Below are positions 14,916-33,477 of a stretch of 64,000 nucleotides of DNA, in pieces (position 1 is the first letter of the stretch; each line of letters opens with the position of its first letter). Made by a program: the position numbers and the translations under genes. A model generated the notes under the pieces. That model saw only the letters and a program-made list of their open reading frames with translations, was not told where the DNA came from and did not search any database. Source of the DNA: Gemmatimonadota bacterium (GTDB lineage Bacteria > Gemmatimonadota > Gemmatimonadetes > Longimicrobiales > Gaopeijiaceae); assembly GCA_034521595.1 (NCBI GenBank), contig JAXHMG010000003.1:256001-320000 (forward strand). Reading direction: 5' to 3'.

Positions 14916-17366
14916 ATGAAGACAGTGGCTGCCCCTATCGCGGCGCTCGGTGCATTGGTGGTTGCCGTGGGTGGTGCGTGGGAGCCGTACTCGTCGGAAT
15001 CGGGCAACGAGCCCGACGACGAGCTCGCGGAGCAACCCCGAGTCGCCCAATCCGCGGCGACCGAGCAGGAAGTCATCGAGCAGTATTGCGTGCGCTGTCA
15101 CAGCGATCGCCGCATGCAGGGAAATCTGTCACTCGAAGACTTCGACGCGACCGCGCCCCATGAGCGAGCGCAGGTCGCCGAGAAGATGATCGTCAAGCTT
15201 CGTACCGGCATGATGCCGCCCCCCGGGGCGAACAGACCGGCGGGCGACACGTTGACGTCGCTCGTGCGGTCGATCGAGGAGCGAGTCGACCGGGCCGCAG
15301 CCGCCTCCCCGCAACCGGGCCAACGGACGTTCCAGCGCCTGAATCGGGTGGAGTACAGCCGCTCGATCGAAGACCTCTTGGGGCTCCAGATCGACGCCGG
15401 TGACTACCTCCCGCTCGATACCAAGGCCGACAACTTCGACAACATCGCGGACGTCCAGCTCCTGTCCCCGACGCTTCTCGATGCGTACATGAACGCGGCC
15501 GCCGAGATCAGCCGGCTGGCGGTCGGTGATCCGAACGCCGCGTATTCCGAGCGCACGTACACGGTGTCCGGCTACGTGTCACAGGACGAGCGCGTGGACG
15601 GGGCGCCGTTCGGAACGCGCGGGGGCGTCAGCATCGAGCACAACTTTCCGGCCGACGGGGACTACATCTTCACGATCGTACCGGAACACACGACGACGGG
15701 GAGCGGCTTCTTCGGGCAAATCGCCCGCTACCAACAAGTCGAGATCTCCATCAACGGTGAGAGGAAAGCGCTCCTCGATATCGATCAGTGGATGGATGTG
15801 GCCGATCCCGAAGGGATCTCGATGCGCACGCCCCCCATATTCGTGCCCGCGGGCCCGCAGAGGGTCACGGCCGCGTTCATCAAGCGGGCGGAAGGCCCGG
15901 CCGAGGACTTGCTTTCCCCTCACGATTGGACGCTGGCCGACCGGCACACCGGAATGGGGGGGTATGGCCTCAGGCTGCTTCCTCACATACGTGACCTGAT
16001 CGTGGCGGGGCCGCGGCGCGTCACGGGTGTGTCCGACAATCCCGTTCGGGACCGGATCTTCACCTGCCGCCCGGTCGAGCCCCGGGACGAGGAGCCGTGT
16101 GCCGAGCGGATCCTCACGGATCTCGCCGAGCAGGCATACCGTCGCCCGGTCGCGGAGCGAGATCGGGAGGCCCTGCTCCGGTTCTATGAGATGGGCGCGG
16201 AGGAAGGAGGCTTCGAAGTCGGTATCCGTACGGGGCTGCAGGCCCTCCTGGCCAGCCCCCACTTCATCTTCCGCTTCGAGGGGCCGGCGGATTCGGCCAC
16301 ACCGGGAGAGGCGTTCGAGATCAGCGACCAGGCGCTCGCGTCCCGGCTGTCGTTCTTCCTGTGGGGACGGCCGCCCGACGAAGAGCTCCGGAGCGTTGCC
16401 GCCGATGGTAGGCTCTCCAATGACGCCGAGCTCGAGCGCCAGGTGCGCCGTATGTTGGAGGATCCGCGCTCCGAGGCGCTCGCGACGCGATTCGCCGCGC
16501 AGTGGCTCCGGCTCCCCGACCTGGACAAGGTCCATCCCGACCAGTTCTGGTATCCGGACTACGATCAGCAGCTCGCCAACGCCATGCGTCGCGAGACCGA
16601 GCTCTTTTTCCACAGCCTGGTCCGCGAAGATCGGTCCGTTCTGGATCTCTACAACGCGGACTATACGTTCGTGAACGAGCGTCTCGCACGGCACTACGGA
16701 ATCGACGGGGTCGTCGGTGACCAGTTCAAACGGGTGCGTTATCCCGGAGAGCGGCGGCGGGGCATCCTCGGCCACGGGAGCGTCCTGACGCTGACGTCGC
16801 ACGCGGGGCGGACCTCCCCGGTATTGCGCGGGAAGTGGGTCATGGAGGTCCTCATGGGATCACCGCCCCCTCCTCCACCACCGGGTGTGCCGCCTCTCGA
16901 TGAGACCTCGGACCAGGTGACCGATGGTCGGGTGCTCACCACCAAGGAACGGATGGAGATGCACCGGGCCAATCCGACGTGTAACGCCTGTCATCGCTTC
17001 ATCGACCCCATAGGGCTCGCGCTCGACAACTTCGACGTCACGGGCAAGTGGCGGATCAAGGAGAACGGGGTGGAGCTGGACACCCGAGGCGAGCTCTACG
17101 ACGGCACGCCGGTCGATAGCCCCGGGGCGCTCACCGAAGCGCTTCTGAGCCGACCGATCCCGCTCCTGCGGACGTTTACCGAGAACCTCATGGCATATGC
17201 TCTGGGACGTCTGGTGGAGTATCGGGACCAACCGACGGTGCGCCACATCGTGAGCGAAGCCGAGAAGAAAGATTACCGGATGTCTGCGTTCATTCTCGGT
17301 GTGGTGAAGAGTGACGCGTTCCGGATGCAGGGAGCCGGAACCGCGACGGACGACGCGGCGAACTAA
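14916..17366 (+). CDS. DUF1592/DUF1588/DUF1587/DUF1595/DUF1585 multidomain c-type cytochrome, copy 1
   Basis: Signal peptide; CVRCH...MMPP; RLNRVEY; ASPHFIFR; LASRLSFFLW; TSPVLRGKWV; CNACH..IDPIG; YALGR. Confidence 0.92.
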   Translation: MKTVAAPIAALGALVVAVGGAWEPYSSESGNEPDDELAEQPRVAQSAATEQEVIEQYCVRCHSDRRMQGNLSLEDFDATAPHERAQVAEKMIVKLRTGMMPPPGANRPAGDTLTSLVRSIEERVDRAAAASPQPGQRTFQRLNRVEYSRSIEDLLGLQIDAGDYLPLDTKADNFDNIADVQLLSPTLLDAYMNAAAEISRLAVGDPNAAYSERTYTVSGYVSQDERVDGAPFGTRGGVSIEHNFPADGDYIFTIVPEHTTTGSGFFGQIARYQQVEISINGERKALLDIDQWMDVADPEGISMRTPPIFVPAGPQRVTAAFIKRAEGPAEDLLSPHDWTLADRHTGMGGYGLRLLPHIRDLIVAGPRRVTGVSDNPVRDRIFTCRPVEPRDEEPCAERILTDLAEQAYRRPVAERDREALLRFYEMGAEEGGFEVGIRTGLQALLASPHFIFRFEGPADSATPGEAFEISDQALASRLSFFLWGRPPDEELRSVAADGRLSNDAELERQVRRMLEDPRSEALATRFAAQWLRLPDLDKVHPDQFWYPDYDQQLANAMRRETELFFHSLVREDRSVLDLYNADYTFVNERLARHYGIDGVVGDQFKRVRYPGERRRGILGHGSVLTLTSHAGRTSPVLRGKWVMEVLMGSPPPPPPPGVPPLDETSDQVTDGRVLTTKERMEMHRANPTCNACHRFIDPIGLALDNFDVTGKWRIKENGVELDTRGELYDGTPVDSPGALTEALLSRPIPLLRTFTENLMAYALGRLVEYRDQPTVRHIVSEAEKKDYRMSAFILGVVKSDAFRMQGAGTATDDAAN

Positions 17367-17386
17367 CTTCAGGAGGCCCCGAGGTC

Positions 17387-18784
17387 ATGGAATTCATCAC
17401 TGGAAAGCGACTCGAGCGACGCACCTTCCTCAAAGGGATGGGCGCCACCGTGGCTTTGCCGCTGCTCGACGCCATGGTTCCCGCTGGACGCGGGTGGTCG
17501 CAGGACGATCCGACGCGCTTCGTCGCGATCGAGTTGGTCCATGGAGCGGCCGGCTGCAACGAGTGGGGTGCGACCCAGAACCTTTGGGCGCCCGCAGACG
17601 TGGGGTCGAACTTCGATCTGAGCCCGAGCTCGCTCAGCCCGCTCGACCCGTGGCGTGACTATCTGACGATCGTGAGCAACACGGACGTGCGCATGGCCGA
17701 GGCGTACGCGCCCGGTGAGATCGGGGCGGACCACTTCCGCTCCAGCGCCGTGTTCCTCACCCAGGCGCATCCCAAGCAGACCCGAGGGTCCGATGTGTTC
17801 GTCGGAACCTCGATGGACCAGATCTACGCCAACCGCTTCGGGCAAGATACGCCGATTCCCTCGATGCAGCTTTGCATTGAGAACGTTGATCAATCCGGCG
17901 GGTGCGCGTACGGGTACTCGTGCGTCTATACCGACTCCATCAGTTGGGCGGCTCCCGACGAGCCCCTACCGCTCATTCGCGATCCGCGCGTAGCGTTCGA
18001 GATGCTCTTCGGAGCGGGCGCCACGCCGGAAGAGAGAGCGCGGCGTCGACGGACCAACCACAGCATTCTCGACTGGATCGGAGACGAGGTCGCCTACCTG
18101 AAGCGGGAGCTCGGACCGAACGATCACCGCCGACTCGACCGCTATCTGGAAAACGTGCGTGAGCTCGAGCGCAGGATCGAGGGCGTCGAGGCGCAGAACC
18201 AGAGCGGAGAGACGAGGGAGCTCCCCGAAGCACCTGCCGGCGTCCCCGATTCGTTCGAGGAGCACATGCGCCTGATGTTCGACATCCAGGCCCTCGCGTT
18301 CGCTTCCGACATGACACGCGTGTTTTCGTTCAAGACGGGTCGGGACGCCTCGGGGCGCGTGTATCCGGAAAGTGGCACGGACAAGCCGTTCCATCCGGCC
18401 TCCCACCATGGCGGCCAGGAGGAGGCGATCCTCGACTTCGCCAAGATCAATACGTATCACGTGAGCATGCTCCCGTACTTCCTCACGAAGCTGAAAGACC
18501 TCGAGGAGGGAGATGGAACCATGCTCGATAAGACGATGATCCTCCTCGGCTCGCCGATGGGTGACCCGAACGTCCACAACCATCGCCGTTGTCCCCTCGT
18601 GACCTTGGGTAAGGCGAACGGACAGCTACAAGGGAACGTGCACTTGAAGGCTCCGGACGGGACGCCGATGGCGAACGTCATGCTGAGCCTGATGCACCGT
18701 CTCGGTATGGACGATATGCACAGCTTCGGGGACAGCACGGGCGAGTTGTCGCTCTCTGCACCTTCTCACGCTTCGGCGATGTGA
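17387..18784 (+). CDS. DUF1552 (HxxSHH) protein with twin-arginine signal, copy 1
   Basis: ERRTFLKG Tat motif; ALPLLDAM; HPASHH; GCAYGYSCVY. Confidence 0.92.
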   Translation: MEFITGKRLERRTFLKGMGATVALPLLDAMVPAGRGWSQDDPTRFVAIELVHGAAGCNEWGATQNLWAPADVGSNFDLSPSSLSPLDPWRDYLTIVSNTDVRMAEAYAPGEIGADHFRSSAVFLTQAHPKQTRGSDVFVGTSMDQIYANRFGQDTPIPSMQLCIENVDQSGGCAYGYSCVYTDSISWAAPDEPLPLIRDPRVAFEMLFGAGATPEERARRRRTNHSILDWIGDEVAYLKRELGPNDHRRLDRYLENVRELERRIEGVEAQNQSGETRELPEAPAGVPDSFEEHMRLMFDIQALAFASDMTRVFSFKTGRDASGRVYPESGTDKPFHPASHHGGQEEAILDFAKINTYHVSMLPYFLTKLKDLEEGDGTMLDKTMILLGSPMGDPNVHNHRRCPLVTLGKANGQLQGNVHLKAPDGTPMANVMLSLMHRLGMDDMHSFGDSTGELSLSAPSHASAM

Positions 18785-18788
18785 CGAG

Positions 18789-20585
18789 ATGATGTTCGGA
18801 CGAATTCGTCATCCGATGAAACGAATCCGGGCGCCGCTCGTGGTGCTCGGCGCGCTGGTGTTGTGGGGAAGCGTCCCACCGGACGCCCCGCTCGCCGACG
18901 CGGCGATGGAGGACGATGCTGCCCGCGTGGTAGAGCTCCTCGAGTCCGGGGCGGACGTCAACGCCGCACAGGGCGACGGGATGACGGCGCTCCATTGGGC
19001 CGCGTATAACGGGCGAGCCGAGCTCGTGGAGACGCTCCTGAGTGCCGGAGCGAACATCGATCCCGTGACGCGGATCGGGAGCTATACACCGCTCCACCAC
19101 GCCGCCCGCAACGGGTACGCGGACGTCGTGGATGCGCTGTTGGCCGCGGGAGCGAATCCGGAAGCACGCACGTCGACTGGGGGGGCTAGCCCCCTCCATC
19201 TGGCCGCGGCCGCCGGACGCGAAGCGGCCGTGGAGAGCCTCGTGCGAGCCGGGGCCGAGGTCGATGCGCGTGAAGAACGATGGGGCCAAACCCCTCTCAT
19301 CTTCGCCGCCTCGGCCGGCCGGACGTCGGCCGTTCGGACCCTCATGGATCTTGGAGCGGACCCGTCTTTGACGACGAACGTGGTCGACATCCCCGAGAAG
19401 GAGGCCGTCGACCGAGCCGCCGGGGAGGTCCGGGACCAGATCCTCGAGACGTTCCGTGAACAGGCGGAGGACGAGAGCTCGTGGCGCCCGGATCCCAGTC
19501 AGGTGAAAGCGGCCGTACAGGCGGCGCAAGATGTGCAGAAGGCTGGGACGGTGTCGGGCGACACGTCCGAGCGCGACACCTCCGACGACGCGTTCGTCGG
19601 CTACACCGGATTGGTCGGCACGCAGGGCGGCTTGACCGCCCTCCTGCATGCCGTTCGTGAAGGACATGCCGAGACGGCCATCGCGCTGATCGAGGGTGGG
19701 GCCGAGGTGAATCGGCGGAGTGCCGGAGACGAGACTCCCCCGTTGTTGATGGCCACCATCAACGGGCACTTCGATCTCGCGCTAGAGTTGCTCGTGCGAG
19801 GGGCCGACCCGAATCTCGCGAGCGTGGCGGGTGCCACGCCCCTGTACACCGCGCTGAATACCCAGTGGGCCCCGAAGGCTCGTTATCCCCAACAGCAGGC
19901 CTACCAGCAGCAGGAAGCGAGCTACCTCGATGTCATGGAGGCGCTGCTCGAGGCGGGTGCGGACCCGAACGTCCGGCTGCGGCAGCATCTCTGGTACATG
20001 TCTTACACGTTCGATCTGCTCGGCGTGAACGTGGCGGGCTCCACGCCATTCTGGCGTGCGGCGTACGCGACTGACGCCGAGGCCATGCGCCTCCTCGTGG
20101 AGCACGGCGCAGATCCGGACATTCCCACGCGAAAGCCTCCCGAGCGGCGGCGAGGGGACGAGGAGTCCGAGGAGGAGGATCCTTCGGGATTGCCCCCCGT
20201 GCCGGTTGGAGGACCTGCCGTGTGGCCCATCCACGCGGCGGCCGGTGTCGGATACGGACAGGGGTTCGCCGGGAACGCGCACCGACATGTGCCCGACGGC
20301 TGGATGCCGGCGATGCGCTACTTGGTCGAGGACCTCGGCGTGGACGTGAACGTTCGAGACCACGACGGCTACAACGCCGTTCACCATGCGGCCGCGCGCG
20401 GGCACGACGAGATGATCCGGTTCCTGGTCGAGCACGGAGCGGACGTGACGGCCGTGAGCCGAGAAGGCCAGACGACGGCGGACATGGCCAATGGGCCCGT
20501 CCAGCGTATCAGTCCCTTCCCGTCGACGATCCGCTTACTCGAGAGCCTCGGGTCCGAGAACAACGACAATTGTGTCTCGTGCTGA
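18789..20585 (+). CDS. Exported ankyrin-repeat protein with C-terminal CxxC, copy 1
   Basis: Hydrophobic N-terminus; many G.T(A/P)LH.AA..G repeats; ends NNDNCVSC. Start may be 18816. Confidence 0.92.
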   Translation: MMFGRIRHPMKRIRAPLVVLGALVLWGSVPPDAPLADAAMEDDAARVVELLESGADVNAAQGDGMTALHWAAYNGRAELVETLLSAGANIDPVTRIGSYTPLHHAARNGYADVVDALLAAGANPEARTSTGGASPLHLAAAAGREAAVESLVRAGAEVDAREERWGQTPLIFAASAGRTSAVRTLMDLGADPSLTTNVVDIPEKEAVDRAAGEVRDQILETFREQAEDESSWRPDPSQVKAAVQAAQDVQKAGTVSGDTSERDTSDDAFVGYTGLVGTQGGLTALLHAVREGHAETAIALIEGGAEVNRRSAGDETPPLLMATINGHFDLALELLVRGADPNLASVAGATPLYTALNTQWAPKARYPQQQAYQQQEASYLDVMEALLEAGADPNVRLRQHLWYMSYTFDLLGVNVAGSTPFWRAAYATDAEAMRLLVEHGADPDIPTRKPPERRRGDEESEEEDPSGLPPVPVGGPAVWPIHAAAGVGYGQGFAGNAHRHVPDGWMPAMRYLVEDLGVDVNVRDHDGYNAVHHAAARGHDEMIRFLVEHGADVTAVSREGQTTADMANGPVQRISPFPSTIRLLESLGSENNDNCVSC

Positions 20586-20613
20586 CTGAAGCACACCGAA
20601 GGAGATAGGTATC

Positions 20614-23103
20614 TTGAAGACGCTCATCACCGTTATCGCGACCTCGGGCACGCTTCTTACGTATACGGCCCTGGCGTCCGGACCGGTCGAATCGGTCGAT
20701 CGGTCCGATGGCGATGTGGTGGGCGGAATCGAAGTGGCGGAGACGTCCGGCCACGGGGCGTTGGATGACCCGGCTGCCGAGAACGAGCTCATCGACCGCT
20801 ACTGCGTGCGGTGTCACAGCGAGCGGCGCATGCAAGGGAACATGTCCCTCGAGTCGTTCGATGCGGGCACCCCGTTCGAGGATCCGGTCCTCTCCGAGAA
20901 GATGGTCGTGAAGCTCCGGGCCGAGATGATGCCGCCCCCGGGCGCGAACCGACCCGCCGGAGATTCGCTGACCGCGCTCGTGGAATCTCTGGAGCAGCGG
21001 CTCGATTCGGCGGCGTTCGCCGATCCCAATCCGGGGGGGCGGACCTTCCAACGCTTGAACCGCGCGGAGTACGAGCGTTCCGTGCGTGACCTGCTCGGTC
21101 TCGAGATCGACGCCGGTGAATACCTGCCGCTGGACACGAAGAGCAACAACTTCGACAACATCGCCGACGTGCAGATGGTCTCGCCGACCCTGCTCGACTC
21201 GTATCTGACCGCGGCCGCGGAAGTAAGCAGACTCGCTGTGGGGAATCCCAACGCCAGCCCCTCCGAGCACCAGTACCGCATTCCACGCTGGGTGTCCCAG
21301 ACCGAGCGGGTCGAGGGAGCGCCGTTCGGCACGAGGGGCGGAATCTCGGTCAACCATGTGTTCCCGGCGGACGGGGAGTACGTGTTCCGTTTCTCCTTGC
21401 ACCACGAGACCACGGGCACCGCAGTGGGCAACGGGCGGTCATCGCTCGCCACGCCGGACGATCCCGAGCAGGTCGAAATCTCTATCGACGGTGAGCGGGT
21501 CGCCCTGTTGGACATGGATCGCTGGATGCACGTGTCGAACCCTGAAGGCGTCGAGATGGAGACGGAGTCGATCTCCGTCACCGCCGGCCCGAAGCAGGTG
21601 AGCGCGGCGTTCGTGAAGCGTCAGGAAGGACCGGTACAGGATCTGGTGCGGCCGCACGACTGGTCGCTCGCCAGCACGGCGATCGCGGGCGAGTACGGGG
21701 TGCTGTCATTGCCGCATATGCGTGACTTCGTGATCGCGGGGCCCTGGAACGTGACGGGCGTCTCCGATCACCCGGTGCGGGAGCAGATCTTTTCCTGCTA
21801 TCCCGAGCGTCCGGAAGAAGAGCGGCCATGCGCGAAAGAGATCATCGAGCGTCTCGGATCCCGGGCGTTCCGGCGCCCACTGACCGACGATGACCGGACG
21901 GCGCTCCTCCGCTTCTTCGAGATGGGCGTGGAGGAAGGTGGCTTCGACATCGGAATCCGGACGGCGCTCGAGGCCATTTTGGCCAGCCCGCACTTCGTGT
22001 TCCGGTTCGAAGAGGCTCCCGGTTCGGTCGAGACGGGAGATTCGTACCGCATCAACGACGTGGATCTGGCCGCGCGCCTCTCGTACTTCCTCTGGGGGCT
22101 GCCACCGGACCAGGAGCTCATGTCGCTGGCGACCGCCGAGCGGCTATCCGATCCGGAGACGCTCGAGGCACAGGTGCGTCGCATGCTGCAGGATCCAAGA
22201 GCCGAGGCGTTGAGCACGCGGTTCGCGTCGCAGTGGCTCCGGTTGCAGGACCTGGAGAAGGTACATCCGGACGTGCGCATGGCTCCGGATTACCATCAGC
22301 AGTTGGCGGACGCCATGCTCGAGGAGACGCAGCGCTTCTTCACGCACCTCGTGCGGGAAGACCGGAGCATGTTCGAGCTGTACACGGCGGACTACACCTT
22401 CGTGAACGAGCGCCTGGCGCGACACTACGACATACCGGGCGTGACTGGTGACGATTTCCGGAAGGTGCAGTACCCCTACGACTACCGCCGGGGCATCCTC
22501 GGGCACGGGAGCATCCTGACGCTGACGTCCCACGCGGGGCGCACCTCACCCGTTCTTCGCGGCAAGTGGATCATGGAAGTCGTCATGGGCACACCTCCAC
22601 CACCGCCTCCCCCGGGAGTGCCTCCCTTGGACGAGACATCGGACGAGGCGTCCGAGGGCCGGATGCTCACGACCAAGGAGCGCATGGAGATGCACCGGGC
22701 CAACCCGACGTGCAACGCGTGTCACCGGTTCATCGATCCGCTCGGCCTGGCGCTCGATAGCTACGATATGACCGGAAAGTGGCGGATCAAGGAGAACGGA
22801 GTGCGGCTCGAAACGAGCGGTGAGCTCTACGACGGGACACCGATCACGGGGCCCCGTGAGCTGCAAGAGGCGTTGCTCGACCGGCCTGTTCTGCTGCTCC
22901 GCTCGTTCACGTCGAACCTGATGGCGTACGCGCTGGGTCGGCGGGTGGAGCACTTCGACCAGCCGACGATCCGCAAGATCGTACGCGAGGCGGCTGAAGA
23001 GGATTACAGCATCTCGGCGTTCGTGCTCGGGGTGGTGAAGAGCGACGCCTTCCAGATGCAGCGCGCGGGCGCGGTAGCCACCGACGCGGCCAATCAGGAC
23101 TGA
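20614..23103 (+). CDS. DUF1592-type dihaem c cytochrome, copy 2
   Basis: TTG start with AAGGAG upstream; CVRCH and CNACH; paralog of 14916..17366. Confidence 0.92.
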   Translation: MKTLITVIATSGTLLTYTALASGPVESVDRSDGDVVGGIEVAETSGHGALDDPAAENELIDRYCVRCHSERRMQGNMSLESFDAGTPFEDPVLSEKMVVKLRAEMMPPPGANRPAGDSLTALVESLEQRLDSAAFADPNPGGRTFQRLNRAEYERSVRDLLGLEIDAGEYLPLDTKSNNFDNIADVQMVSPTLLDSYLTAAAEVSRLAVGNPNASPSEHQYRIPRWVSQTERVEGAPFGTRGGISVNHVFPADGEYVFRFSLHHETTGTAVGNGRSSLATPDDPEQVEISIDGERVALLDMDRWMHVSNPEGVEMETESISVTAGPKQVSAAFVKRQEGPVQDLVRPHDWSLASTAIAGEYGVLSLPHMRDFVIAGPWNVTGVSDHPVREQIFSCYPERPEEERPCAKEIIERLGSRAFRRPLTDDDRTALLRFFEMGVEEGGFDIGIRTALEAILASPHFVFRFEEAPGSVETGDSYRINDVDLAARLSYFLWGLPPDQELMSLATAERLSDPETLEAQVRRMLQDPRAEALSTRFASQWLRLQDLEKVHPDVRMAPDYHQQLADAMLEETQRFFTHLVREDRSMFELYTADYTFVNERLARHYDIPGVTGDDFRKVQYPYDYRRGILGHGSILTLTSHAGRTSPVLRGKWIMEVVMGTPPPPPPPGVPPLDETSDEASEGRMLTTKERMEMHRANPTCNACHRFIDPLGLALDSYDMTGKWRIKENGVRLETSGELYDGTPITGPRELQEALLDRPVLLLRSFTSNLMAYALGRRVEHFDQPTIRKIVREAAEEDYSISAFVLGVVKSDAFQMQRAGAVATDAANQD

Positions 23104-23147
23104 ACAGGAACGACACCAAGTAGACGACTACGGGAGACGGACGAACC

Positions 23148-24563: not shown

Positions 24564-26326
24564 GGACGATGATCGGACGCATGCGTAGTGCCTCGCGACG
24601 GATGTGGCTCGTCGCGCTGGCTATGTTCGCGCTATCGGGGCACGGACCGCCCGAAGCACCCGTGGCCGACGCGGCCATGCGGGACGATGTCGAGGAGGTC
24701 CGTTCCCTGCTGGAGCGCGGGGTGGACCCGAACGCTGCCCAAGGCGACGGGATGACCGGGCTTCACTGGGCGGCCGAGCGGGGGAGCGTCGAGCTCGCTA
24801 GCGCTCTCATCGATGCGGGCGCCGAACTCGACCCCCGCACCCGTCTCGGGTCGTACACGCCGGTTCATCTGGCTGCGAGGGGTGGGCACGACGGAGTGTT
24901 GCGCCTGCTTCTGGAGGGGGGAGCGTCCCCGTCCATGCCAACCACGACCGGCGCCGTGACGCCGCTTCATTTTGCTGCGACATCGGCGAATCCCGCCGTG
25001 GCCGTGGCCCTTCTCGAGCATGGCGCCGACCCGGATGCCCGGGAAGAACGTTGGGGCCAGACCCCGTTGATGTTCGCGGCCGCGGCCGCTCGTCCGGCCG
25101 TGGTCGATGCACTACTCGACCACGGTGCGGATCCCGAGTCGCGGGCGTACGTCCTGGACCTGCCGACCCGCGCGGCCGAGGATGCTGCCGACCGGGATCG
25201 GGTGGAGGAGGCACGAGAGAGCGGGAAGCCGCGCGCCTCCGTCCGACGTCCGTCCTTTACGTCGCCTCGACCCGCGGAGCGCCCTGTAGATAAGGGGGGC
25301 TTGGCCGATCGCGAGGGCGAATCAGAGGTCCGGTCGTATTCTTCCGCGGAGCTGATCGGAGGCTATGGAGGCCTGTCCGCCTTACTCATGGCGGTGCGAG
25401 AGGGTAGCACCGAGACGGCCCTGCGTCTCGTAGACGGCGGTGCGGATATCGACGGACGGAGTGCCGGAGACGGGACGTCCCCGCTGCTCATGGCGACGAT
25501 CAACGGACACTTCGACCTGGCGCTCCAGCTCCTCGAGGGGGGGGCGGACCCTCGTCTTCAGAACGATGCCGGTGCGACCGCCCTCTACACCGCGATCAAT
25601 ACCCAGTGGATTCCGAAGTCACGGCACCCTCAGCCGGCACACTATAAGCAGCAGAAGGCGAGCTATCTCCAGGTAATGGAGGCGCTGCTGGAGGCCGGAG
25701 TGGATCCCAACGTTCGGTTGAACCGGGAGCTCTGGTTCACGAGGGGAGGATACCTCGGCGTGGACCGCATGGGCGCGACGCCGTTCTGGAGGGCCGCGTA
25801 CGCACTCGATGTCGATGCGATGAAGCTCCTTGTCGAACACGGTGCGGACCCCACCATTCCGACGATGAAGGCTCCGTCGCGACGGCGCCGGGGCGGAAGC
25901 GACAACACGGACGGCTCGGATCCCTCGGGACTTCCAGCGGTGCCGCCGGGTGGGCCGGGAGTCTATCCCATTCACGCGGCGAGCGGGGTGGGGTACGGTG
26001 AAGGGTATGCCGGCAACGTCCATCGGCATGTGCCGGATGGATGGATGCCGGCGGTGAAGTACCTCGTGGAGGAGCTCGGTGCCGACGTGAACGTTCGTGA
26101 CCACAACGGATACAACGCGCTTCATCACGCGGCCGCACGTGGGGACAACGACATGATTCTGTACCTGGTGGAGCAGGGAGCCGACGTGATGGCGGTGAGC
26201 CGCCGGGGTCAGACGACGGTCGATATGGCGAACGGGCCCGTGCAGCGGATTACGCCGTTCCCCGAGACCATACGGTTGTTGGAGGGATTGGGCGCCAAGA
26301 ACAACCACAACTGCGTGTCGTGCTGA
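24560..26326 (+). CDS. Exported ankyrin-repeat protein with C-terminal CxxC, copy 2
   Basis: Ankyrin repeats; ends NNHNCVSC. Start uncertain (GTGA overlap or a later ATG). Confidence 0.9.
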   Translation: MRTMIGRMRSASRRMWLVALAMFALSGHGPPEAPVADAAMRDDVEEVRSLLERGVDPNAAQGDGMTGLHWAAERGSVELASALIDAGAELDPRTRLGSYTPVHLAARGGHDGVLRLLLEGGASPSMPTTTGAVTPLHFAATSANPAVAVALLEHGADPDAREERWGQTPLMFAAAAARPAVVDALLDHGADPESRAYVLDLPTRAAEDAADRDRVEEARESGKPRASVRRPSFTSPRPAERPVDKGGLADREGESEVRSYSSAELIGGYGGLSALLMAVREGSTETALRLVDGGADIDGRSAGDGTSPLLMATINGHFDLALQLLEGGADPRLQNDAGATALYTAINTQWIPKSRHPQPAHYKQQKASYLQVMEALLEAGVDPNVRLNRELWFTRGGYLGVDRMGATPFWRAAYALDVDAMKLLVEHGADPTIPTMKAPSRRRRGGSDNTDGSDPSGLPAVPPGGPGVYPIHAASGVGYGEGYAGNVHRHVPDGWMPAVKYLVEELGADVNVRDHNGYNALHHAAARGDNDMILYLVEQGADVMAVSRRGQTTVDMANGPVQRITPFPETIRLLEGLGAKNNHNCVSC

Positions 26327-26360
26327 CGGCGAAGCTTCAGCTTCGCTTCGAGTGACGTAA

Positions 26361-26410
26361 GAAAAAGAAGGCCCCGGAAGCGATTGCGGATCGCTTCCGG
26401 GGCCTTCTCT
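26361..26410. terminator. Probably bidirectional intrinsic terminator
   Basis: 19-bp perfect stem (26366-26384 / 26390-26408) with an A-tract on the left, between convergent genes. Confidence 0.85.
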
Positions 26411-26503
26411 CGTCCTTCATCGTCGTCCCTGACCCGACTGGCTATTGTCTACTCACGATCGGCCTTCCGTGGTCTTCGGAGGTATCCGCCGGCGTGAAAC
26501 CGC

Positions 26504-26920
26504 TTATCGCTGGTGGTCGTCGCTGTCGTCGGTCCCGTCGAGAGATGCGACAATCTCTTCGAAGCGCGAGCGAGCTTCGTTATCGACGCTCAGGAGGAAC
26601 GTGATGCCGTCGTACTCTTCCTTCGTCATCTCGTGCTCCTCGTACAGCGCGGCCAGCCGCTCGTCCATCTCTTCACGCAGACGCTCTCGAGCGTCCGTCT
26701 CGTGGACGCTCGCCTTCTCGGCCTGGAACTCCTCCTGAGCCTCCTGGATGGCGCGGTGGAGCGTCGCGTACGTCGTGAGGCGCTCTTCGCTCACCGATGG
26801 GGCATCAGCAGTCTGTTGCGCCGCCTGGGCCTCGGCACGATCTGGTAGGCCACCGACGGCGACGGCCGCCGCGAAAAGGGCGAAGCCGAGAAGCCGAGCG
26901 CGGGTGTTGCGGGTATCCAT
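26504..26920 (-). CDS. DUF4168-type secreted helical protein
   Basis: Signal peptide ending AEA-Q; VSEERLTTYA...EEHEMTKEEYDGI...RSRF. Confidence 0.75.
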   Translation of the reverse strand: MDTRNTRARLLGFALFAAAVAVGGLPDRAEAQAAQQTADAPSVSEERLTTYATLHRAIQEAQEEFQAEKASVHETDARERLREEMDERLAALYEEHEMTKEEYDGITFLLSVDNEARSRFEEIVASLDGTDDSDDHQR

Positions 26921-27085
26921 CTTGGTCGTTCCTCCGGCGATGACAGGTCGGGTCTTCTATCGTGATCGTGCCCTCATACCCGGCAGAGGGTCCGAGTGTT
27001 GCGTGCCTGGGGCACAGTCCCATCATATCCGGGTATACTATTGTGACGAAACGGCACGAGCACCTTTTGACACGAGGGTAGCATC

Positions 27086-27349
27086 ATACCTATCTACGAA
27101 TACTCCTGCCAGTCTTGTGGCGCACGTTTCGAGAATCTCGTGCTCGGGTCGAAAGAGACGCCTGCCGTTGTTTGCCCGAAGTGCGAGAGCGAGGACGTGG
27201 AGCGACTGCTGTCCACGCCGGCCGTGCAGTCGGATACGACGCACGCCAAGGCGATGCAAGCGGCGAAGAAGCGGGACCAGGAGCAAGGGAAGGAGCGCAT
27301 GCACGCGCAGCTCCAGTACGAGCAGAGTCACGACCGGCACGGTCACTGA
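27086..27349 (+). CDS. FmdB-family zinc-ribbon protein (ATA at the expected start)
   Basis: xPIYEYSCQSCGARFE...CPKCES..VERLLS; GAGGG 7 nt upstream; in-frame TGA at 27068. Confidence 0.85.
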   Translation: MPIYEYSCQSCGARFENLVLGSKETPAVVCPKCESEDVERLLSTPAVQSDTTHAKAMQAAKKRDQEQGKERMHAQLQYEQSHDRHGH

Positions 27350-27367
27350 CGGCGGTCCGTCCGCCAA

Positions 27368-27394
27368 TGCTGCGGAACGCCGGGTTCCGCAGCA
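27368..27394 (+). terminator. Stem-loop after the FmdB-like gene
   Basis: tgctgcggaac / gttccgcagca 11-bp stem with no U-tract. Confidence 0.4.
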
Positions 27395-27420
27395 CGACGT
27401 CAACGCTTCGTCCCCGGGCG

Positions 27421-27503
27421 GTGTCTTTATGGGTAGAGAGCCGATGCCAGCGGTCAGAACGCGCTTCGCGCTTCTGGCATGAGAGTGATCGGCCGAATAT
27501 ACT
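27421..27503 (+). promoter_or_regulatory. Putative sigma70-type promoter plus upstream motif for module copy 3
   Basis: GTGTCTTTATggGTA at 27421; TGGCAT-N17-TATACT (27475-27503). Confidence 0.55.
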
Positions 27504-27649
27504 CGAAGTGACACGAAAAGAACCGCATTCGGTGATGCCCGCCGGTGAGCGAGCTTCACCATCGACTTGAACGAAACACCCGCTCCTGCGGAAAGACGCG
27601 TTCCGCGCTTTCGGGGATCGGGGCCAGCAGGCCAGAATTGGGAGGCCGG

Positions 27650-30130
27650 ATGAAGACAGTCTCCGCGACAATCGCGGCGGTAGGTGCGCTGATGATGTAC
27701 GCCGGTGGCGTGACGATGACGCTTCCGGAGGGATCCAGCGACATCGCGGCGTCGGACGCCACCACGGAACACGCATCCGTGGGCGAGTTGGCGAGCGAGC
27801 TCTCGAACAACGAGATCGTGGACCGATACTGCGTCCGGTGTCACAGTGAGCGCCGTCTGCAGGGCAACCTGTCCCTGGAAGACTACGATGCCACGGCGCC
27901 GGAATCGGATGCGCAGCTCAGCGAGAAGGTGATTCTGAAGCTGCGTGCCGGCATGATGCCACCGCCCGGCGCCAACCGGCCGGGGGGAGACACGCTTCAG
28001 GCGCTCGCGGTCTCGCTGGAGAACCGAGTCGACGAGGTCGCGCTCGACAATCCCAACCCGGGCTCCCGTCCCTTCCAGCGGCTGAATCGGGCCGAGTACG
28101 GGCGTTCCGTTCGGAATCTGCTGAACCTGGAGATCGACGCCGGAGATTACCTCCCGCTCGATACGAAGAGCGCGAACTTCGACAACATCGCCGACGTGCA
28201 GATGCTGTCGCCGACGCTCCTCAACTCCTACATGAACGCGGCGGCCGAAGTCAGCCGCTTGGCCATGGGCGACCGCAATGCCTCCGCGCGTTCGGTGACG
28301 TTCACCAATCCCGGGTACATCTCCCAGTGGGATCGTGTCCCCGGCGCGCCGTACGGGACGCGCGGCGGAGTGAGCGTCGTGCATAACTTCCCGGCGGACG
28401 GTGAATACCGCCTGAGCATGACCTTCGAGCACACCACGACGGGTGGTGTCTACGGTGGTACATATAAGGACGAAGACGTCGAGATCTCGGTCGACGGCGA
28501 ACGGAAGGCCGTGATCGCTTTCGATCGCTGGATGTCGGTGGCCGACCCGAACGGCGTCGAGATGGAGCTTGAGGAGCCCATCACCGTGACGGCCGGTCCC
28601 CATCGGATCACGGCGGCGTTCATCAAGAAGAACGAAGGCCCGATGGAGGACGTGCTGTCGCCGCACGACTGGTCGATCGCGGACCGCCAGATCGGCGCTA
28701 GCGGAGGTTACGGCGTAACGACGCCGGCGCACATGAAGGACCTCATTATTCACGGTCCTGTCGAGGTAACGGGTGTGTCCGAGACCCCGAGCCGTGAGCA
28801 CGTCCTTTCCTGCCGGCCCACCGAGCCGTCGGAGGAGCGGCCCTGCGCCGAGAAGATTATCGAGCGACTCGGGCCTGAAGCGTTCCGTCGCCCGCTGACC
28901 GACGAGGATCGCGAATCCCTCATGAGCTTCTACGAGTTCGGCTATGAAGAAGGCGGATTCGAAATCGGGATTCGCACGGTGGTGGAAGCGCTGCTCGCCA
29001 GCCCGGACTTCATCTTCCGATTCGAAGAGGCGCCGGCCGATGTCCAGGGAGGTGATGTATACCGTATCAACGACATCGACCTGGCGGCCCGGCTCTCGTA
29101 CTTCCTCTGGGGTCTTCCCCCGGATGACGAGTTGATCCAGCTCGCCGCCGAGAACCGTCTGTCGGATCCGGAAGTATTGGATGCCCAGGTGGACCGGATG
29201 TTGGACGATCCGCGCTCCGAGGCTCTGGCGACGCGGTTCGCGGCCCAGTGGCTGAGGCTCGGCGACCTGGACAAAGTTCATCCGGACCGGCTGATGTTTC
29301 CGGACTTCCACGAGCAGCTGAAGGATGCGATGCGTCGCGAGACCGAGCTGCTGTTCGACCACCTGGTTCGTGAAGACAAGAGCTTCTTCGAGCTCTACAC
29401 GGCGGACTACACGTTCGTGAACGAGCGGCTCGCCCGGCACTACGGGATCGACGGTGTCACGGGCGACGAGTTCCGTCGCGTATCGTATCCCGAAGGCTCG
29501 AAGCGTCCGGGTATTCTCGGGCACGGAAGCATCCTGACGCTCACCTCCCACGCGGGTCGTACGTCACCCGTGCTGCGAGGAAAGTGGATCATGGAGGTCG
29601 TGATGGGCACGCCCCCGCCGCCACCACCGCCCGGTGTGCCGTCGCTCGACGAAACAGCGGACGAGGCTTCCGAGGGCCGTAACCTGACCACGAAGGAGCG
29701 CATGGAGATGCACCGCGCGAACCCGACGTGTAACGCGTGTCATCGGTTCATCGACCCGATCGGCTTGGCACTGGATAACTTCGACGTCACGGGACAGTGG
29801 CGGATCAAGGAAGGTGGTGTCCCGCTGGATACCAGAGGGGAGCTCTACGACGGCACGCCCGTCACGAGCCCATTGTCCCTCCAGGACGCGCTACTCGACC
29901 GGTCCGTGCTGCTCCTTCGGTCGTTCACGTCGAACCTCATGGCCTACGCCCTCGGGCGCCGGACGGAGTACTTCGATCAGCCGACGATCCGAAAGATCGT
30001 GGACAACGCGGAAGAGGACGGATATAGCATGACCTCGTTCGTGAAGGGCATCGTGAAGAGCGACGCCTTCCAGATGCAGAAGGCCGGGGCGCCCACGGAG
30101 GACGTGGCCGCCGACGCAGCAAATCAGTAA
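27650..30130 (+). CDS. DUF1592-type dihaem c cytochrome, copy 3
   Basis: GGAGG then ATG at 27650 (MKTVSATIAA); CVRCH and CNACH. Confidence 0.92.
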   Translation: MKTVSATIAAVGALMMYAGGVTMTLPEGSSDIAASDATTEHASVGELASELSNNEIVDRYCVRCHSERRLQGNLSLEDYDATAPESDAQLSEKVILKLRAGMMPPPGANRPGGDTLQALAVSLENRVDEVALDNPNPGSRPFQRLNRAEYGRSVRNLLNLEIDAGDYLPLDTKSANFDNIADVQMLSPTLLNSYMNAAAEVSRLAMGDRNASARSVTFTNPGYISQWDRVPGAPYGTRGGVSVVHNFPADGEYRLSMTFEHTTTGGVYGGTYKDEDVEISVDGERKAVIAFDRWMSVADPNGVEMELEEPITVTAGPHRITAAFIKKNEGPMEDVLSPHDWSIADRQIGASGGYGVTTPAHMKDLIIHGPVEVTGVSETPSREHVLSCRPTEPSEERPCAEKIIERLGPEAFRRPLTDEDRESLMSFYEFGYEEGGFEIGIRTVVEALLASPDFIFRFEEAPADVQGGDVYRINDIDLAARLSYFLWGLPPDDELIQLAAENRLSDPEVLDAQVDRMLDDPRSEALATRFAAQWLRLGDLDKVHPDRLMFPDFHEQLKDAMRRETELLFDHLVREDKSFFELYTADYTFVNERLARHYGIDGVTGDEFRRVSYPEGSKRPGILGHGSILTLTSHAGRTSPVLRGKWIMEVVMGTPPPPPPPGVPSLDETADEASEGRNLTTKERMEMHRANPTCNACHRFIDPIGLALDNFDVTGQWRIKEGGVPLDTRGELYDGTPVTSPLSLQDALLDRSVLLLRSFTSNLMAYALGRRTEYFDQPTIRKIVDNAEEDGYSMTSFVKGIVKSDAFQMQKAGAPTEDVAADAANQ

Positions 30131-30185
30131 CTCAGCAACAGCGATCGAGAACGGTTCCCAATAGACCGCATAGGAGAACAACACC

Positions 30186-31601
30186 ATGGAATTCATTACC
30201 GGAAGGCACATTCCCCGTCGCACGTTTCTGCAAGGCATGGGGGCCTCCGTCGCACTACCGTTTCTCGACGCGATGGTCCCCGCGGGCCGTGGTTGGTCCA
30301 GTGCGGCCGCCGAGTTCGACGCCACCCGTCTCGTCGCCATCGAGATGGTGCACGGCGCGGCAGGATGTAACGACTGGGGCGCGACCCAGAACCTGTGGGC
30401 CCCCGCTGATGTGGGCCGGAATTTCGACCTGAGCCCGACGTCGCTCCGTTCGCTGGAGTCTTGGAGAGAGTACCTCACGATCGTGAGCAACACCGACGTC
30501 CGGATGGCCGAAGCGTTCAAGCCGAAGGAGATCGGCGGTGACCACTTCCGCTCGAGCGCGGTGTTCCTCACGCAGTCGCATCCGAAGCAGACCGAGGGTT
30601 CCGACGTCTTCGTCGGTACCTCGCTGGATCAGATGTACGCCAAGCGGTATGGGCAGGATACGCCCATCCCCTCGATGCAGCTGTGTATCGAGAATATCGA
30701 TCAGTCCGGCGGCTGTGCGTACGGGTACACTTGCGTCTACACGGACTCGATCAGCTGGGCCTCACCCACCGAGCCGCTCCCGGTCATCCGGGATCCGCGC
30801 GTGGCGTTCGAGCAGCTCTTCGGCGCCGGTGGCACGGCTGAGGAGCGTGCGCTGCGCCGCCGTACCGGCAGCAGCATCCTGGACTGGGTGTCCGGGCGTG
30901 TGAGCCAATTGCGGCGTGACCTGGGCCCGAATGATCGCGACCGACTCGATCGTTACTTGGAGAACGTGCGCGAGCTCGAGCGTCGCATCGAGCTGGTGGA
31001 GGCACAGAACCAGAGCGGTGAGATGCGCGAGCTGCCCGAAGCGCCGGCCGGTGTGCCGGATTCCTTCGAGGAGCACGTGCGGCTCATGTTCGACGTTCAG
31101 GCCCTCGCCTTCGAATCCGATACCACGCGCGTGTTTTCCTTCAAGATGGGCCGTGACTCCTCCGCTCGAGTGTACCCGGATAGCGGGACGGACAAACCGT
31201 TCCACCCGGCATCGCACCACGGTGGGCAAGAAGAAGCCATCTTGGACTTCCAGAAGATCAACACGTACCACGTCAGCATGCTGCCGTACTTCTTGGAGAG
31301 CCTCAGCAAGATCCAGGAAGGCGACCAGACCATGCTCGACAAGACGATGATCGTCTATGGGTCTCCGATGGGCGATCCGAACCTCCACAACCATCGCCGG
31401 ACACCTCTGATCACGTTGGGCGGTGCCAACGGCAAGCTGGAAGGGAACCTGCACTTGAGGGCACCCGACGGTACGCCGATGGCGAATGCGATGCTAAGCC
31501 TGATGCACAAGCTCGGGTTGGACGACATGGAAAGCTTCGGAGACAGCACTGGCGAACTCTCGTTCGGTGCTCCGTCCATCTCGACGGCCATGGGCCGCTG
31601 A
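30186..31601 (+). CDS. DUF1552 (HxxSHH) Tat protein, copy 3
   Basis: PRRTFLQG; HPASHH. Confidence 0.92.
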   Translation: MEFITGRHIPRRTFLQGMGASVALPFLDAMVPAGRGWSSAAAEFDATRLVAIEMVHGAAGCNDWGATQNLWAPADVGRNFDLSPTSLRSLESWREYLTIVSNTDVRMAEAFKPKEIGGDHFRSSAVFLTQSHPKQTEGSDVFVGTSLDQMYAKRYGQDTPIPSMQLCIENIDQSGGCAYGYTCVYTDSISWASPTEPLPVIRDPRVAFEQLFGAGGTAEERALRRRTGSSILDWVSGRVSQLRRDLGPNDRDRLDRYLENVRELERRIELVEAQNQSGEMRELPEAPAGVPDSFEEHVRLMFDVQALAFESDTTRVFSFKMGRDSSARVYPDSGTDKPFHPASHHGGQEEAILDFQKINTYHVSMLPYFLESLSKIQEGDQTMLDKTMIVYGSPMGDPNLHNHRRTPLITLGGANGKLEGNLHLRAPDGTPMANAMLSLMHKLGLDDMESFGDSTGELSFGAPSISTAMGR

Positions 31602-31638
31602 GACGGGACTATCCTGAAGCTTGCGTAGGGAGATACAT

Positions 31639-33477
31639 ATGAAGAACCGTTTGCACACTCATTCATTGGGCGCGCTTTTGGCGACGCTCTTCCTGTGGGG
31701 TGGCACGCCACCGGAAGCCCCGGTAGCGGATGCTGCCATGCAGGGAGACTTCGCCCGGGTCGAGTCACTGATCCAAGAGGGTGCGGACCCGGACGTCGCT
31801 CAGGGAGACGGGATGACCGCGCTCCACTGGGCGGCCGAGCAAGGGCACGCCGAGATGGCCCGTACGCTCGTCGATGCGGGTGCGAGCCTTTCGTTGACGA
31901 CACGCCTGGGTGACTACACGCCCCTTCATATGGCGGCACGAGGAGGGCACGCGGAGGTCCTGGAGATTCTGCTCGAAGCGGGCAGCGACCCGAATGCACG
32001 CACGTCCACGGGCGGTAGCACGGCGCTTCATTTCGCCGCCACCACATCGAGTCAACCGGCGGTGGCCGCGTTGATCGCATACGGCGCGAACGTCGACACT
32101 CGTGAAGATCATTGGGACCAGACCCCTCTGATGTTCGCGGCTTCGAAGGGCCGGCTCGAGACCGTGGAGACCCTGTTGGACGCGGGCGCCGACGTGAACG
32201 CCATGTCCGGTGTGCGTGACATGCGCGTGCGCGAGGCGGAGGATGATGCCGGTGAGGATATCCGGGACCGGGTCCTCGAAGAGCTTCGGGCCGAGCACGA
32301 GGCCAAAAGCGGTGACGAGAACTGGCGGCCGAGCCCGAGCGAAGTGCAGATGGCTCTGCGACGGGCACGTGCGGAGGACGGTCGGGAAATCGAGGGGTCC
32401 GAAGACTTGCCGGGCTCGGCATATATTCCGCCGGAGAAGGTGGATGAGTACCGGAGCGAGGAGTCCGAGGAGTACAATCCGTCGTATGCCGCGCTCGTTG
32501 GGGGTCAAGGTGGCCTGACGCCGCTTCTCCATGCCGTTCGGGAAGGTGAGCCCGAAGTCGCGCTTCGACTGATCGAGGCCGGGGCTGACATCAACCAGCG
32601 GAGCGGTGGTGACGGCACGAGCCCGCTGCTCATGGCCGCCATGAACGGTCACTTCGACATGATGTTCGAGCTGCTCGACCGTGGTGCCGACCCGAACCTC
32701 GCGAGCGATGCCGGCACAACGCCGTTGTTCGCGGTGATCAACACTCAGTGGGCGCCGAAGGCGCGGTACCCTCAGCAACGGGCGTACCTGCAGCAGGAAG
32801 CTTCGCACCATGACATGATGCGAGCCTTGCTCGACGCCGGTGCTGACCCGAACGTGCGGCTGACCAAGCACCTGTGGTTCATGGAATACACGTTCAGTCA
32901 CCTGGACGTGGACATGCGGGGAGCCACGCCATTCTTCCGGGCTGCACACGCTCTGGACGTGGAAGCTATGAAGATGTTGGTGGAGGCCGGCGCGGACCCG
33001 ACGGTTCCGACGAAGAAGCCGCCGGAGCGTCGTCGTCGGTATGATGATGATGAAGAGGAAGAGGAAGAGGATCCATCCGGGCTGCCCCCGGTCGAGGAAG
33101 GCGGCCCGGCGGTGTATCCGATCCACGTGGCCACCGGGCACGGATATGGCACGGGGTACGCCGGCAACTCACACCGGCATGTTCCGGACGGGTGGATGAA
33201 CGCCGTCAAGTACCTCGTGGAAGAAGTTGGAGCCGATGTGAATGCCCGGGACTACCGGGGTTATTCGCCACTCCACAATGCGGCAGCGCGGGGTCACGTG
33301 GAGATGTTGGAATACCTAGTCTCCAAGGGCGCCGACCCCCTCGCGGTCAGTCGGCGGGGCCAAACGACCGTCGACATGGCCAATGGACCGGTGCAGAGAA
33401 TTCAGCCCTTCCCGGAAGCGATCCGCTATTTGGAGAGCTTGGGGGCTGAGAACAACAATCGGTGTCAGTCCTGCTGA
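31639..33477 (+). CDS. Exported ankyrin-repeat protein with C-terminal CxxC, copy 3
   Basis: GGGAG then ATG at 31639; ankyrin repeats; ends NNNRCQSC. Confidence 0.92.
   Translation: MKNRLHTHSLGALLATLFLWGGTPPEAPVADAAMQGDFARVESLIQEGADPDVAQGDGMTALHWAAEQGHAEMARTLVDAGASLSLTTRLGDYTPLHMAARGGHAEVLEILLEAGSDPNARTSTGGSTALHFAATTSSQPAVAALIAYGANVDTREDHWDQTPLMFAASKGRLETVETLLDAGADVNAMSGVRDMRVREAEDDAGEDIRDRVLEELRAEHEAKSGDENWRPSPSEVQMALRRARAEDGREIEGSEDLPGSAYIPPEKVDEYRSEESEEYNPSYAALVGGQGGLTPLLHAVREGEPEVALRLIEAGADINQRSGGDGTSPLLMAAMNGHFDMMFELLDRGADPNLASDAGTTPLFAVINTQWAPKARYPQQRAYLQQEASHHDMMRALLDAGADPNVRLTKHLWFMEYTFSHLDVDMRGATPFFRAAHALDVEAMKMLVEAGADPTVPTKKPPERRRRYDDDEEEEEEDPSGLPPVEEGGPAVYPIHVATGHGYGTGYAGNSHRHVPDGWMNAVKYLVEEVGADVNARDYRGYSPLHNAAARGHVEMLEYLVSKGADPLAVSRRGQTTVDMANGPVQRIQPFPEAIRYLESLGAENNNRCQSC

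Follow-up and report, generated by a model that had tools for sequence, protein, structure and literature searches.

The gene pair encoding a group III PSCyt3/PSD protein and a DUF1552 protein is found in Planctomycetota and Verrucomicrobiota, and the accessible text of the report that describes it gives its function as unknown and offers neither a fold nor a site for DUF1552 (PMC5615132). Here we analyse this module in a 64,000-nucleotide stretch of the genome of a Gemmatimonadota bacterium (contig JAXHMG010000003.1, positions 256,001 to 320,000; hereafter the window), where three copies of the pair are each followed by a gene for an exported ankyrin protein. The PSCyt3/PSD (DUF1592) protein is called A, the DUF1552 protein B and the CxxC-tailed ankyrin protein C; the copies in the window are numbered 1 to 3 (A1, B1, C1 and so on), and residue numbers are those of the copy-1 proteins. 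The A-B-C set is a genuine and conserved variant, with three genes, of a module that is known yet unexplained, and it offers a testable lead, namely a phosphatase-type fold that may have been rewired for redox chemistry. The PSCyt/DUF1552 family is large, multi-copy and functionally unknown in the literature, and the value of the present case lies in this mechanistic lead and not in the locus itself.

Comparison with described systems

The window proteins have the same PSCyt3 and PSD2-5 domains and the same adjacency to DUF1552 as the published pair, as far as the accessible text of PMC5615132 describes it. They differ from it in the near-constant third, exported ankyrin gene, in a VHG...C insertion of B in place of PNG together with an extra Cys163, and in A, where Pfam detects no carbohydrate-binding module (CBM) or PPI domain. 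The module of DUF1501 with PSCyt1, PSCyt2 and PSD1, for which a role in electron transport and an enzymatic role have been proposed, is similar in that a twin-Arg DUF protein is combined with a cytochrome-motif protein in multiple copies; it differs in its Pfam families, and the word 'ankyrin' is absent from the main text of that report, as far as it is accessible (PMC3542564). DUF1501 is also the named family nearest to B by language-model features (0.82-0.83), which is a lead only.

Relatives of the domain set of A have been studied. According to the accessible parts of two reports, Cbp2D of Cellvibrio japonicus consists of an X183 cytochrome domain, DUF1587 and a C-terminal CxxCH domain, X132; Cbp2D is required for growth on cellulose, the use of which is impaired by its loss, and the X183 haem domain acts as an electron donor, so that genetics and biochemistry both back a role in redox reactions (PMC8981238, PMC10916295). 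The Teredinibacter proteins TERTU_2913 and TERTU_3803 are described, in the accessible text, as related X183, DUF1587 and X132 proteins (PMC8981238, PMC10916295, PMC12542752); the legend concerned prints 'DUF1687', taken here as DUF1587. A is likewise secreted and has a cytochrome domain, DUF1587 and a C-terminal CxxCH, but is without a CBM2, X158 or X122 match, and searches of PDB sequences with A1, the A profile and the A N-terminal domain gave nothing significant, the solved X183 domains included. The link between A and Cbp2D is offered as a lead; it is based on the common DUF1587 and on the DUF1592 annotation of a single CBM2 protein from Cellvibrio (PMC6004670). The first-pass annotation of the window had named no assigned function for these families; the function of the A-B pair is indeed unassigned in print, but work on relatives of the domain set of A, namely Cbp2D and the Teredinibacter X132 proteins, had been overlooked.

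For an ankyrin partner that is needed by a redox enzyme, the nearest functional precedent is the periplasmic ankyrin protein AnkB, which is required for the activity of the catalase KatB and whose exported product is encoded in co-transcription with the redox enzyme gene as an accessory factor (via PMC12754779, accessible part). C is unlike AnkB in its size of ~600 aa, family-specific loops, terminal CxxC and a partner that is not a catalase. The ankyrin gene beside the Allochromatium flavocytochrome c is presumably a further parallel. A literature search, made mostly outside the subscription journals, found nothing on an ankyrin partner of DUF1552 or on a DUF1552 structure or fold. The A-B pairing is already in print; the predicted fold of B, the mapping of its putative site, the covariation of His52 with CxxC and the Cbp2D link are added here.

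Three intact copies in the window

All nine open reading frames of the three annotated copies are present and intact, in the same order, and are followed in two places by hairpins:

14916-17366, plus strand: A1, exported PSCyt3/PSD protein with two CxxCH motifs, 816 aa; domain order: N-terminal cytochrome domain, DUF1587, all-beta middle domain, DUF1595, DUF1592, DUF1588, DUF1585
17387-18784, plus strand: B1, DUF1552 protein with twin-Arg N-terminus and predicted alkaline-phosphatase/sulfatase fold; marked residues H52, H116, C163, C173, C179, H336, H340, H341, H397
18789-20585, plus strand: C1, ankyrin protein with export signal and NxHRH loop, ending in CVSC
20614-23103, plus strand: A2, 64% identical to A1, TTG start
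23148-24563, plus strand: B2, 81% identical to B1
24560-26326, plus strand: C2, 60% identical to C1, start overlapping the B2 stop, terminal CVSC
26365-26409, no strand assigned: 20-bp hairpin, U-tail on the minus strand and weak plus-strand tail, probable terminator between convergent genes
27650-30130, plus strand: A3, 65% identical to A1, ATG start, GGAGG ribosome site
30186-31601, plus strand: B3, 81% identical to B1
31621-33477, plus strand: C3, 60% identical to C1, terminal CQSC
33529-33566, plus strand: 14-bp hairpin with U-rich tail after it, probable terminator of copy 3

The window copies are 64-68% (A), 78-81% (B) and 59-60% (C) identical to one another. As first annotated, each A contains CVRCH, MMPP, CNACH and a Pro7 run, and each B a twin-Arg stretch, which reads RRTFL, and HPASHH. 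The C proteins all combine ankyrin repeats with the G(Y/F)AGNxHRH loop and end in a CxxC, the two cysteines of which are the sole ones of each window C protein. The cysteine cluster of B is present too, but with the spacing C-x9-C-x5-C in place of the x8 given earlier. The number of three copies is right for the window but not for the genome (93% complete), in which three further sets bring the total to six complete A-B-C sets; every strong C match in this genome lies directly behind a B, and all six C genes are so placed.

In Pfam terms, A consists of PSD3 (DUF1587), PSD5 (DUF1595), PSD4 (DUF1592), PSCyt3 (DUF1588) and PSD2 (DUF1585), all above the cut-offs in A1-A3, with sub-threshold PSCyt1 matches at the N-termini of A1 and A3; no carbohydrate-binding module, X158, X122 or PPI domain was matched in A1-A3 (E<=0.01). 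B1-B3 are DUF1552 (PF07586; 280-286 bits, cut-off 30) and keep the HxxSHH motif, and C1-C3 are ankyrin repeats. An NCBIfam scan of the nine window proteins found no model at its cut-off; a Legionella Dot/Icm ankyrin effector as the identity of C was rejected, the best score being 124 bits against a cut-off of 600, which reflects generic ankyrin similarity only.

The export and haem signals noted at first pass are borne out as motifs, and genes for TatC and for two proteins of cytochrome c assembly are found in the genome. A lipoprotein or membrane anchor was rejected, since 18 proteins examined had no lipobox and the nine of the window had no hydrophobic segment in their interior. Both hairpins that had been read as terminators after copies 2 and 3 are real (z -6.1 and -6.2, 0/200 shuffles each), but the U-tail of the former is on the minus strand, and its most direct user is therefore a small convergent gene, probably the DUF4168-like gene described below. 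The C1 stop and the A2 start are separated by 28 bases, where a hairpin is absent (z 0.49).

The ankyrin gene is conserved with A and B

The neighbourhood of the module was surveyed in a close-locus set of 76 loci, drawn from 616 matches and biased to 70-87% identity; the labels of the closest relatives are Gemmatimonadota or Longimicrobiales. Of the 72 loci with room for it, 64 have C immediately after B; in the remaining eight a second A-B comes next, followed by C in seven and cut off in one. A lies directly upstream of B in 64/72 testable close loci. In an even sample of the phylum, DUF1552 occurred in 21 of 120 other genomes, with C downstream of B in all 29 fetched loci, and the ankyrin gene is thus co-conserved with A and B in both sets. 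In the phylum of a genome labelled Acidobacteriota, DUF1552 was found in 40/201 genomes, and the 30 loci fetched there had an ankyrin gene downstream (16), none (13) or a cut end (1). A cultured Novosphingobium strain has an A-B-ankyrin set. Among 20 longer loci, three without an ankyrin gene downstream have one upstream of A-B, which is divergent in L156 and L159 and on the same strand in L157. In 80 metagenome loci of a distant clade, many contigs of which are too short for the test, an ankyrin gene next to the pair was never called.

These loci fall into three tiers. Where B has His52 (and Cys163), the next gene encodes a CxxC-tailed ankyrin in 69/71 complete cases. Where B has a P/A-x-G motif, the ankyrin behind it lacks both CxxC and NxHRH in 10/10, a count that leaves out three rows with B truncated before position 52. 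Many A-B pairs, finally, are without any ankyrin. The CxxC tail is accordingly found in 69/71 of the His52 type against 0/10 in the other subtype, and this covariation points to a link between the thiols of C and the His52 subtype of B.

DUF1552 as a whole comprises 13,441 clusters at 50% identity (E<=0.001), and seven of nine genomes of the host's taxonomic family have 2 to 12 matches each. Four loci are labelled Gammaproteobacteria (L027, L033, L053, L065). The trios of L027 and L033 fall within Longimicrobiales in all three trees, and 12 DUF1552 matches were counted in each of the L027 and L053 genomes; since such records are possibly mislabelled, they were not counted as a separate phylum.

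Predicted fold and candidate histidine site of B

B1 and the B profile have no significant relative among PDB sequences (best E 0.064 over all A and B queries), and a Pfam scan of 107 B relatives gave no sulfatase or phosphodiesterase family among 25 listed of 43 families. An AlphaFold2 model built from 107 sequences (mean predicted local distance difference test (pLDDT) 92.3, predicted template modelling score (pTM) 0.93) was compared with 48,161 chains, of which 69 matched at Z>=8 and 70 at Z>=5, the best with Z 16.2, a root-mean-square deviation of 4.0 and 276 aligned residues. The top 50 matches (Z 16.2 to 12.8) all belong to the alkaline phosphatase superfamily: sulfatases, NPP enzymes, PafA, phosphoethanolamine transferases and kin. 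B is predicted to have this alkaline-phosphatase/sulfatase fold; the core is common to B and to members such as the 2qzu sulfatase, NPP and PafA over residues 38-462 (Z <=16.2, ~10% identity), and in the model the conserved residues of B appear at the same topological site. Unlike the superfamily, B has His for the Cys/Ser/Thr nucleophile, no CxPxR and none of the acidic ligands, and it has a helical insertion (~214-306) and a cytochrome partner.

Residues were mapped by a profile alignment of B with 17 sulfatases, which is weak overall (probability 2.7%, pairwise E 0.017) and locally clear. In it, HFRSSAVFLTQ of B aligns with the catalytic C...LLTG helix, which puts His116 opposite the catalytic Cys of sulfatases, His52 opposite the second Asp of the DD metal ligand, SPMG opposite SDNG and His336 opposite the PHxP histidine. 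None of 90 full-length rows has Ser, Thr or Cys at position 116, and H116, H336, H340, H341 and H397 are all kept in 79 of them. The sulfatase motif [CS]x[PA]xR is found at the mapped position in 0/90 rows (HFRSS in B1), the acidic Ca ligands DD and DN are not kept (V51-H52 and P390-M391 at the weakly aligned columns), and the Ser/Thr nucleophile of NPP and alkaline phosphatases is likewise missing at 116 in the 90 rows, the position being mapped via the sulfatase alignment. With these hydrolase residues absent at the mapped positions, B is probably neither a sulfatase nor a canonical phosphatase.

The first Cys of the cysteine cluster occurs in 22/106 aligned family members and the other two in 89/103 and 90/106; one B clade lacks Cys173 and Cys179 yet has the histidines, so the histidines and not the cysteines are the core of the family, and the cluster is not a cofactor site of the whole family. 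The metal centre that had been inferred for B would be a His-rich candidate site on the predicted phosphatase/sulfatase fold. A site of three or four His that has no acidic ligand typically holds Cu, Fe or Mn in a redox role.

At the N-terminus of B, the twin Arg (R11 95/96, R12 96/96) as well as P25 (97/97) and L27 (96/97) are near-invariant. The twin-arginine translocation (Tat) signal scores 18.2 bits against a Pfam cut-off of 22.7, with a short h-region containing Asp, and the model shows ordered strands over residues 11-30 (block pLDDT 83 and 92). Judged from the sequence, export of B by Tat is likely, and a signal that is uncleaved or self-docking is possible. A complex prediction for B1 (8-458) with C1 (55-598), run without controls, scored 0.00 in both runs and so gave no answer; the three-protein complex of the earlier annotation is putative.

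Proteins A and C

A has what a c-type cytochrome has at the level of sequence: CxxCH, an export signal and maturation genes in the same genome. Of 112 complete A proteins, 110 carry two CxxCH motifs, and Met99/Met100 near the first and Met643/His683 near the second, invariant among 89 close homologues, are candidate haem ligands. In the model of A (pLDDT 78, pTM 0.79), the N-terminal cytochrome domain is helical, as is the C-terminal body, and between them lies an all-beta domain (~211-371) whose loops are of low confidence.

C, with a hydrophobic N-terminus and no lipobox, is predicted to be an exported ankyrin protein. A variable acidic insert (26% identity among paralogues) is followed by a better conserved C-terminal half (67%); N496, H498, C595 and C598 are invariant in 112 rows, and look-alikes of C in the atlas are ankyrin clusters only, mostly of Gemmatimonadota and Acidobacteriota. 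C genes of the loci L001-L076, L162 and L163 that end on the second Cys use a TGA stop in 54/60 cases, against 80/129 for A and 86/137 for B (~62%). Selenocysteine read-through after CxxC was rejected, although no search for sel genes was made, as 6/60 use TAG or TAA, the downstream sequence is unconserved and extended forms carry E, Q or N.

Proposed mechanism and alternatives

From these data, a mechanism may be suggested in which each A-B-C set is a periplasmic His-metal oxidoreductase with A as cytochrome relay and C as accessory thiol ankyrin; we regard this reading as quite possible, if a little short of probable. B would fold, perhaps with its metal bound, before export by Tat, and A and C would leave by the general secretory (Sec) route, A receiving its haem from the cytochrome c assembly system. 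H116, H336, H340, H341 and H397, joined by H52 in the His52 subtype, would form a metal site with His ligands only (Cu, Fe or Mn type), placed on the margin of the core sheet like the active site of the hydrolases. There B would oxidise a small organic compound imported through the outer membrane, and A would hand the electrons to the respiratory chain via its two predicted c haems, while its variable beta domain may tune specificity. The C-terminal CxxC of C may keep the extra cysteines or the metal of His52-subtype B in a working state. A bolder form of the proposal is doubtful: in DUF1552 the alkaline-phosphatase fold would have been converted into a redox metalloenzyme with His ligands only, connected to a di-haem cytochrome of its own, and in the host lineage the CxxC ankyrin would load or reset the site. 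We know of no member of the alkaline phosphatase superfamily with His-only redox chemistry wired to a cytochrome.

Several points weigh against the oxidoreductase proposal. To the best of our knowledge, no characterised oxidoreductase has an alkaline-phosphatase fold. The residue mapping of B depends on the weak sulfatase alignment (probability 2.7%), and the corresponding alignment to 15 NPP-like sequences is uninformative (probability 0.1%); the spatial clustering of the histidines is inferred from topology, and His116 could be a phosphoryl-accepting nucleophile and not a ligand. Export and cleavage of B are not certain, given the ordered signal in the model and the Tat score below the Pfam cut-off. 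No substrate is indicated, the flanking genes being clade-specific (peptidases, amidohydrolases, SusCD, cytochrome c). The plasmid loci of Planctomyces, Chondrinema and Sphingobium are A-B pairs without an ankyrin, and since such pairs exist, C is dispensable for the core chemistry. The His52/CxxC covariation, finally, is one clade split, not a series of independent events, and has no statistical weight.

Every listed fold neighbour of B is a superfamily hydrolase, transferase, mutase or homologue, H336 aligns with the conserved PHxP histidine of sulfatases, and sulfatases are often found beside PSCyt genes in Verrucomicrobia, according to the accessible text of PMC5615132. These observations would suit a non-canonical hydrolase or transferase, in which His116 acts as nucleophile or as general base beside one metal held by His, and A binds or pre-oxidises the substrate. 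We consider this unlikely, as the nucleophile motif and the acidic metal ligands of the SDNG/SDHG type are absent, and a near-constant two-haem partner would be left unexplained.

Catalysis could instead take place at the PSCyt3 (second) haem of A, in which case B would take no part in catalysis but bind metal or serve in maturation or as a scaffold, and C would be a further scaffold. Among the six paralogues PSCyt3 is the most conserved part of A (77%) and the beta domain the least (50%), and X132 is a haem domain without characterised homologues in the accessible text of PMC10916295. Against this stands B, the most conserved of the three proteins, with near-invariant His at the active-site positions of its fold, which makes a catalytic A quite unlikely. 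As the least conserved part of A, the beta domain is the most plausible seat of any difference in specificity.

The CxxC of C is its extreme C-terminus in 120/120 homologues and the sole Cys pair after residue 30 in 116/120, and it co-occurs with the extra Cys163 of B, as might be expected if it were the swinging carrier arm of a Sox-like thiol or sulfur relay, in which A is the cytochrome that oxidises and B the enzyme for the group on the arm. Such a relay is very unlikely, because related B proteins occur with CxxC-less ankyrins (10/10) or with no ankyrin, and no sulfur-oxidation genes are present among 27 annotated flanking-gene clusters. That C is an operon passenger without a functional tie to A-B, the extra copies serving dosage or regulation and not specificity, is hardly credible: it agrees with the identical B site residues of the six paralogues and the single C after two A-B pairs in seven loci, but all six C genes of the genome stand directly behind B and nowhere else, the A, B and C trees repeat the same clades, and ankyrins are also found upstream of A-B in 3/20 longer loci.

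With the fold placed and H116, H336, H340, H341 and H397 named, the oxidoreductase proposal is directly testable by metal analysis and point mutants; if the His-only redox reading is true, a very large family that is so far uncharacterised would gain a chemistry. It may be that the ankyrin gene is required for expressing the A-B pair in active form, and cultured Novosphingobium (A-B-ankyrin) and Sphingobium (A-B-cytochrome c-cytochrome b) make genetics possible.

Age and inheritance of the copies

The paralogues are 59-81% identical, with synonymous divergence (dS) of 1.1-2.2, which is near saturation, and a rough ratio of non-synonymous to synonymous divergence of 0.10-0.25 indicates purifying selection on all nine genes (both by Nei-Gojobori). 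In FastTree trees from 58 complete trios, six of this genome and 52 from other loci, copies 1, 2, 4 and 5 each cluster with trios of other genomes and not with the copies beside them in tandem, and clades that are well supported turn up alike in the trees of A, B and C. For these reasons the sequences argue that the three-gene unit was duplicated long ago and has moved whole; the common clades reflect joint inheritance and not co-evolution. A recent duplication or assembly artefact was rejected on identity levels, dS and trees, and the triplication itself is ordinary for the host lineage. The earlier view of the copies as three specificity variants is conjectural. The putative site residues of B are identical in all six paralogues; the larger differences among these lie in the middle beta domain of A and the insert of C.

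Genes around the array and at related loci

Two small genes missing from the earlier gene list lie between copies 2 and 3. One, at 27086-27349 on the plus strand, is of the FmdB zinc-ribbon type (PF09723, 55 bits) with an apparent ATA first codon behind a GAGGG site, and a similar gene start (GTG) follows C in the related locus L019. The other runs from 26920 down to ~26500 on the minus strand, convergent on C2, and encodes a small exported DUF4168-like protein (sub-threshold, E 5e-4).

Downstream of the array, at 33660-34367 on the plus strand, a His-rich exported protein with a weak DinB-like match is encoded by a gene that is single-copy in the genome. Its homologues (58-61%) are found near A-B-C arrays, with a cytochrome c gene close by, in seven loci of one clade (L021, L025, L027, L031, L033, L039, L044), and it is a candidate for a loose fourth partner or metal-binding protein. 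A fixed fourth gene was rejected, as the largest flanking cluster covers only 12/96 loci.

A SusC/SusD pair at 35103-39566 on the minus strand is 57% and 39% identical to a pair that elsewhere lies directly upstream of B-C. SusC/SusD takes the place of A there in six loci of one clade (L053, L062-L065, L074), and for L053 the window SusC is the best SusC match in the genome. Copy 5 has a SusC-like gene ~3 kb upstream. The peptidase, amidohydrolase, SusC and SusD neighbours fit an imported small organic compound; they prove nothing about a substrate, since the genome has at least seven SusD homologues.

Upstream of copy 1, genes for a sodium:solute symporter and a cyanophycinase-like S51 peptidase occupy 12203-14655 on the plus strand; the peptidase is kept in the related loci L001, L007 and L010 and the symporter in L001 and L010. 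A few kb upstream of the array, at 5247-11907 on the plus strand, lies a menaquinone biosynthesis-like cluster with genes for a chorismate-binding protein, a thiamine pyrophosphate (TPP) enzyme and a crotonase-family protein. On a Sphingobium herbicidovorans plasmid (L115:8805-9916), cytochrome c and cytochrome b/b6 genes come directly after DUF1592-DUF1552, with an SDR oxidoreductase gene next, an arrangement that fits electron flow from A-B to the membrane.

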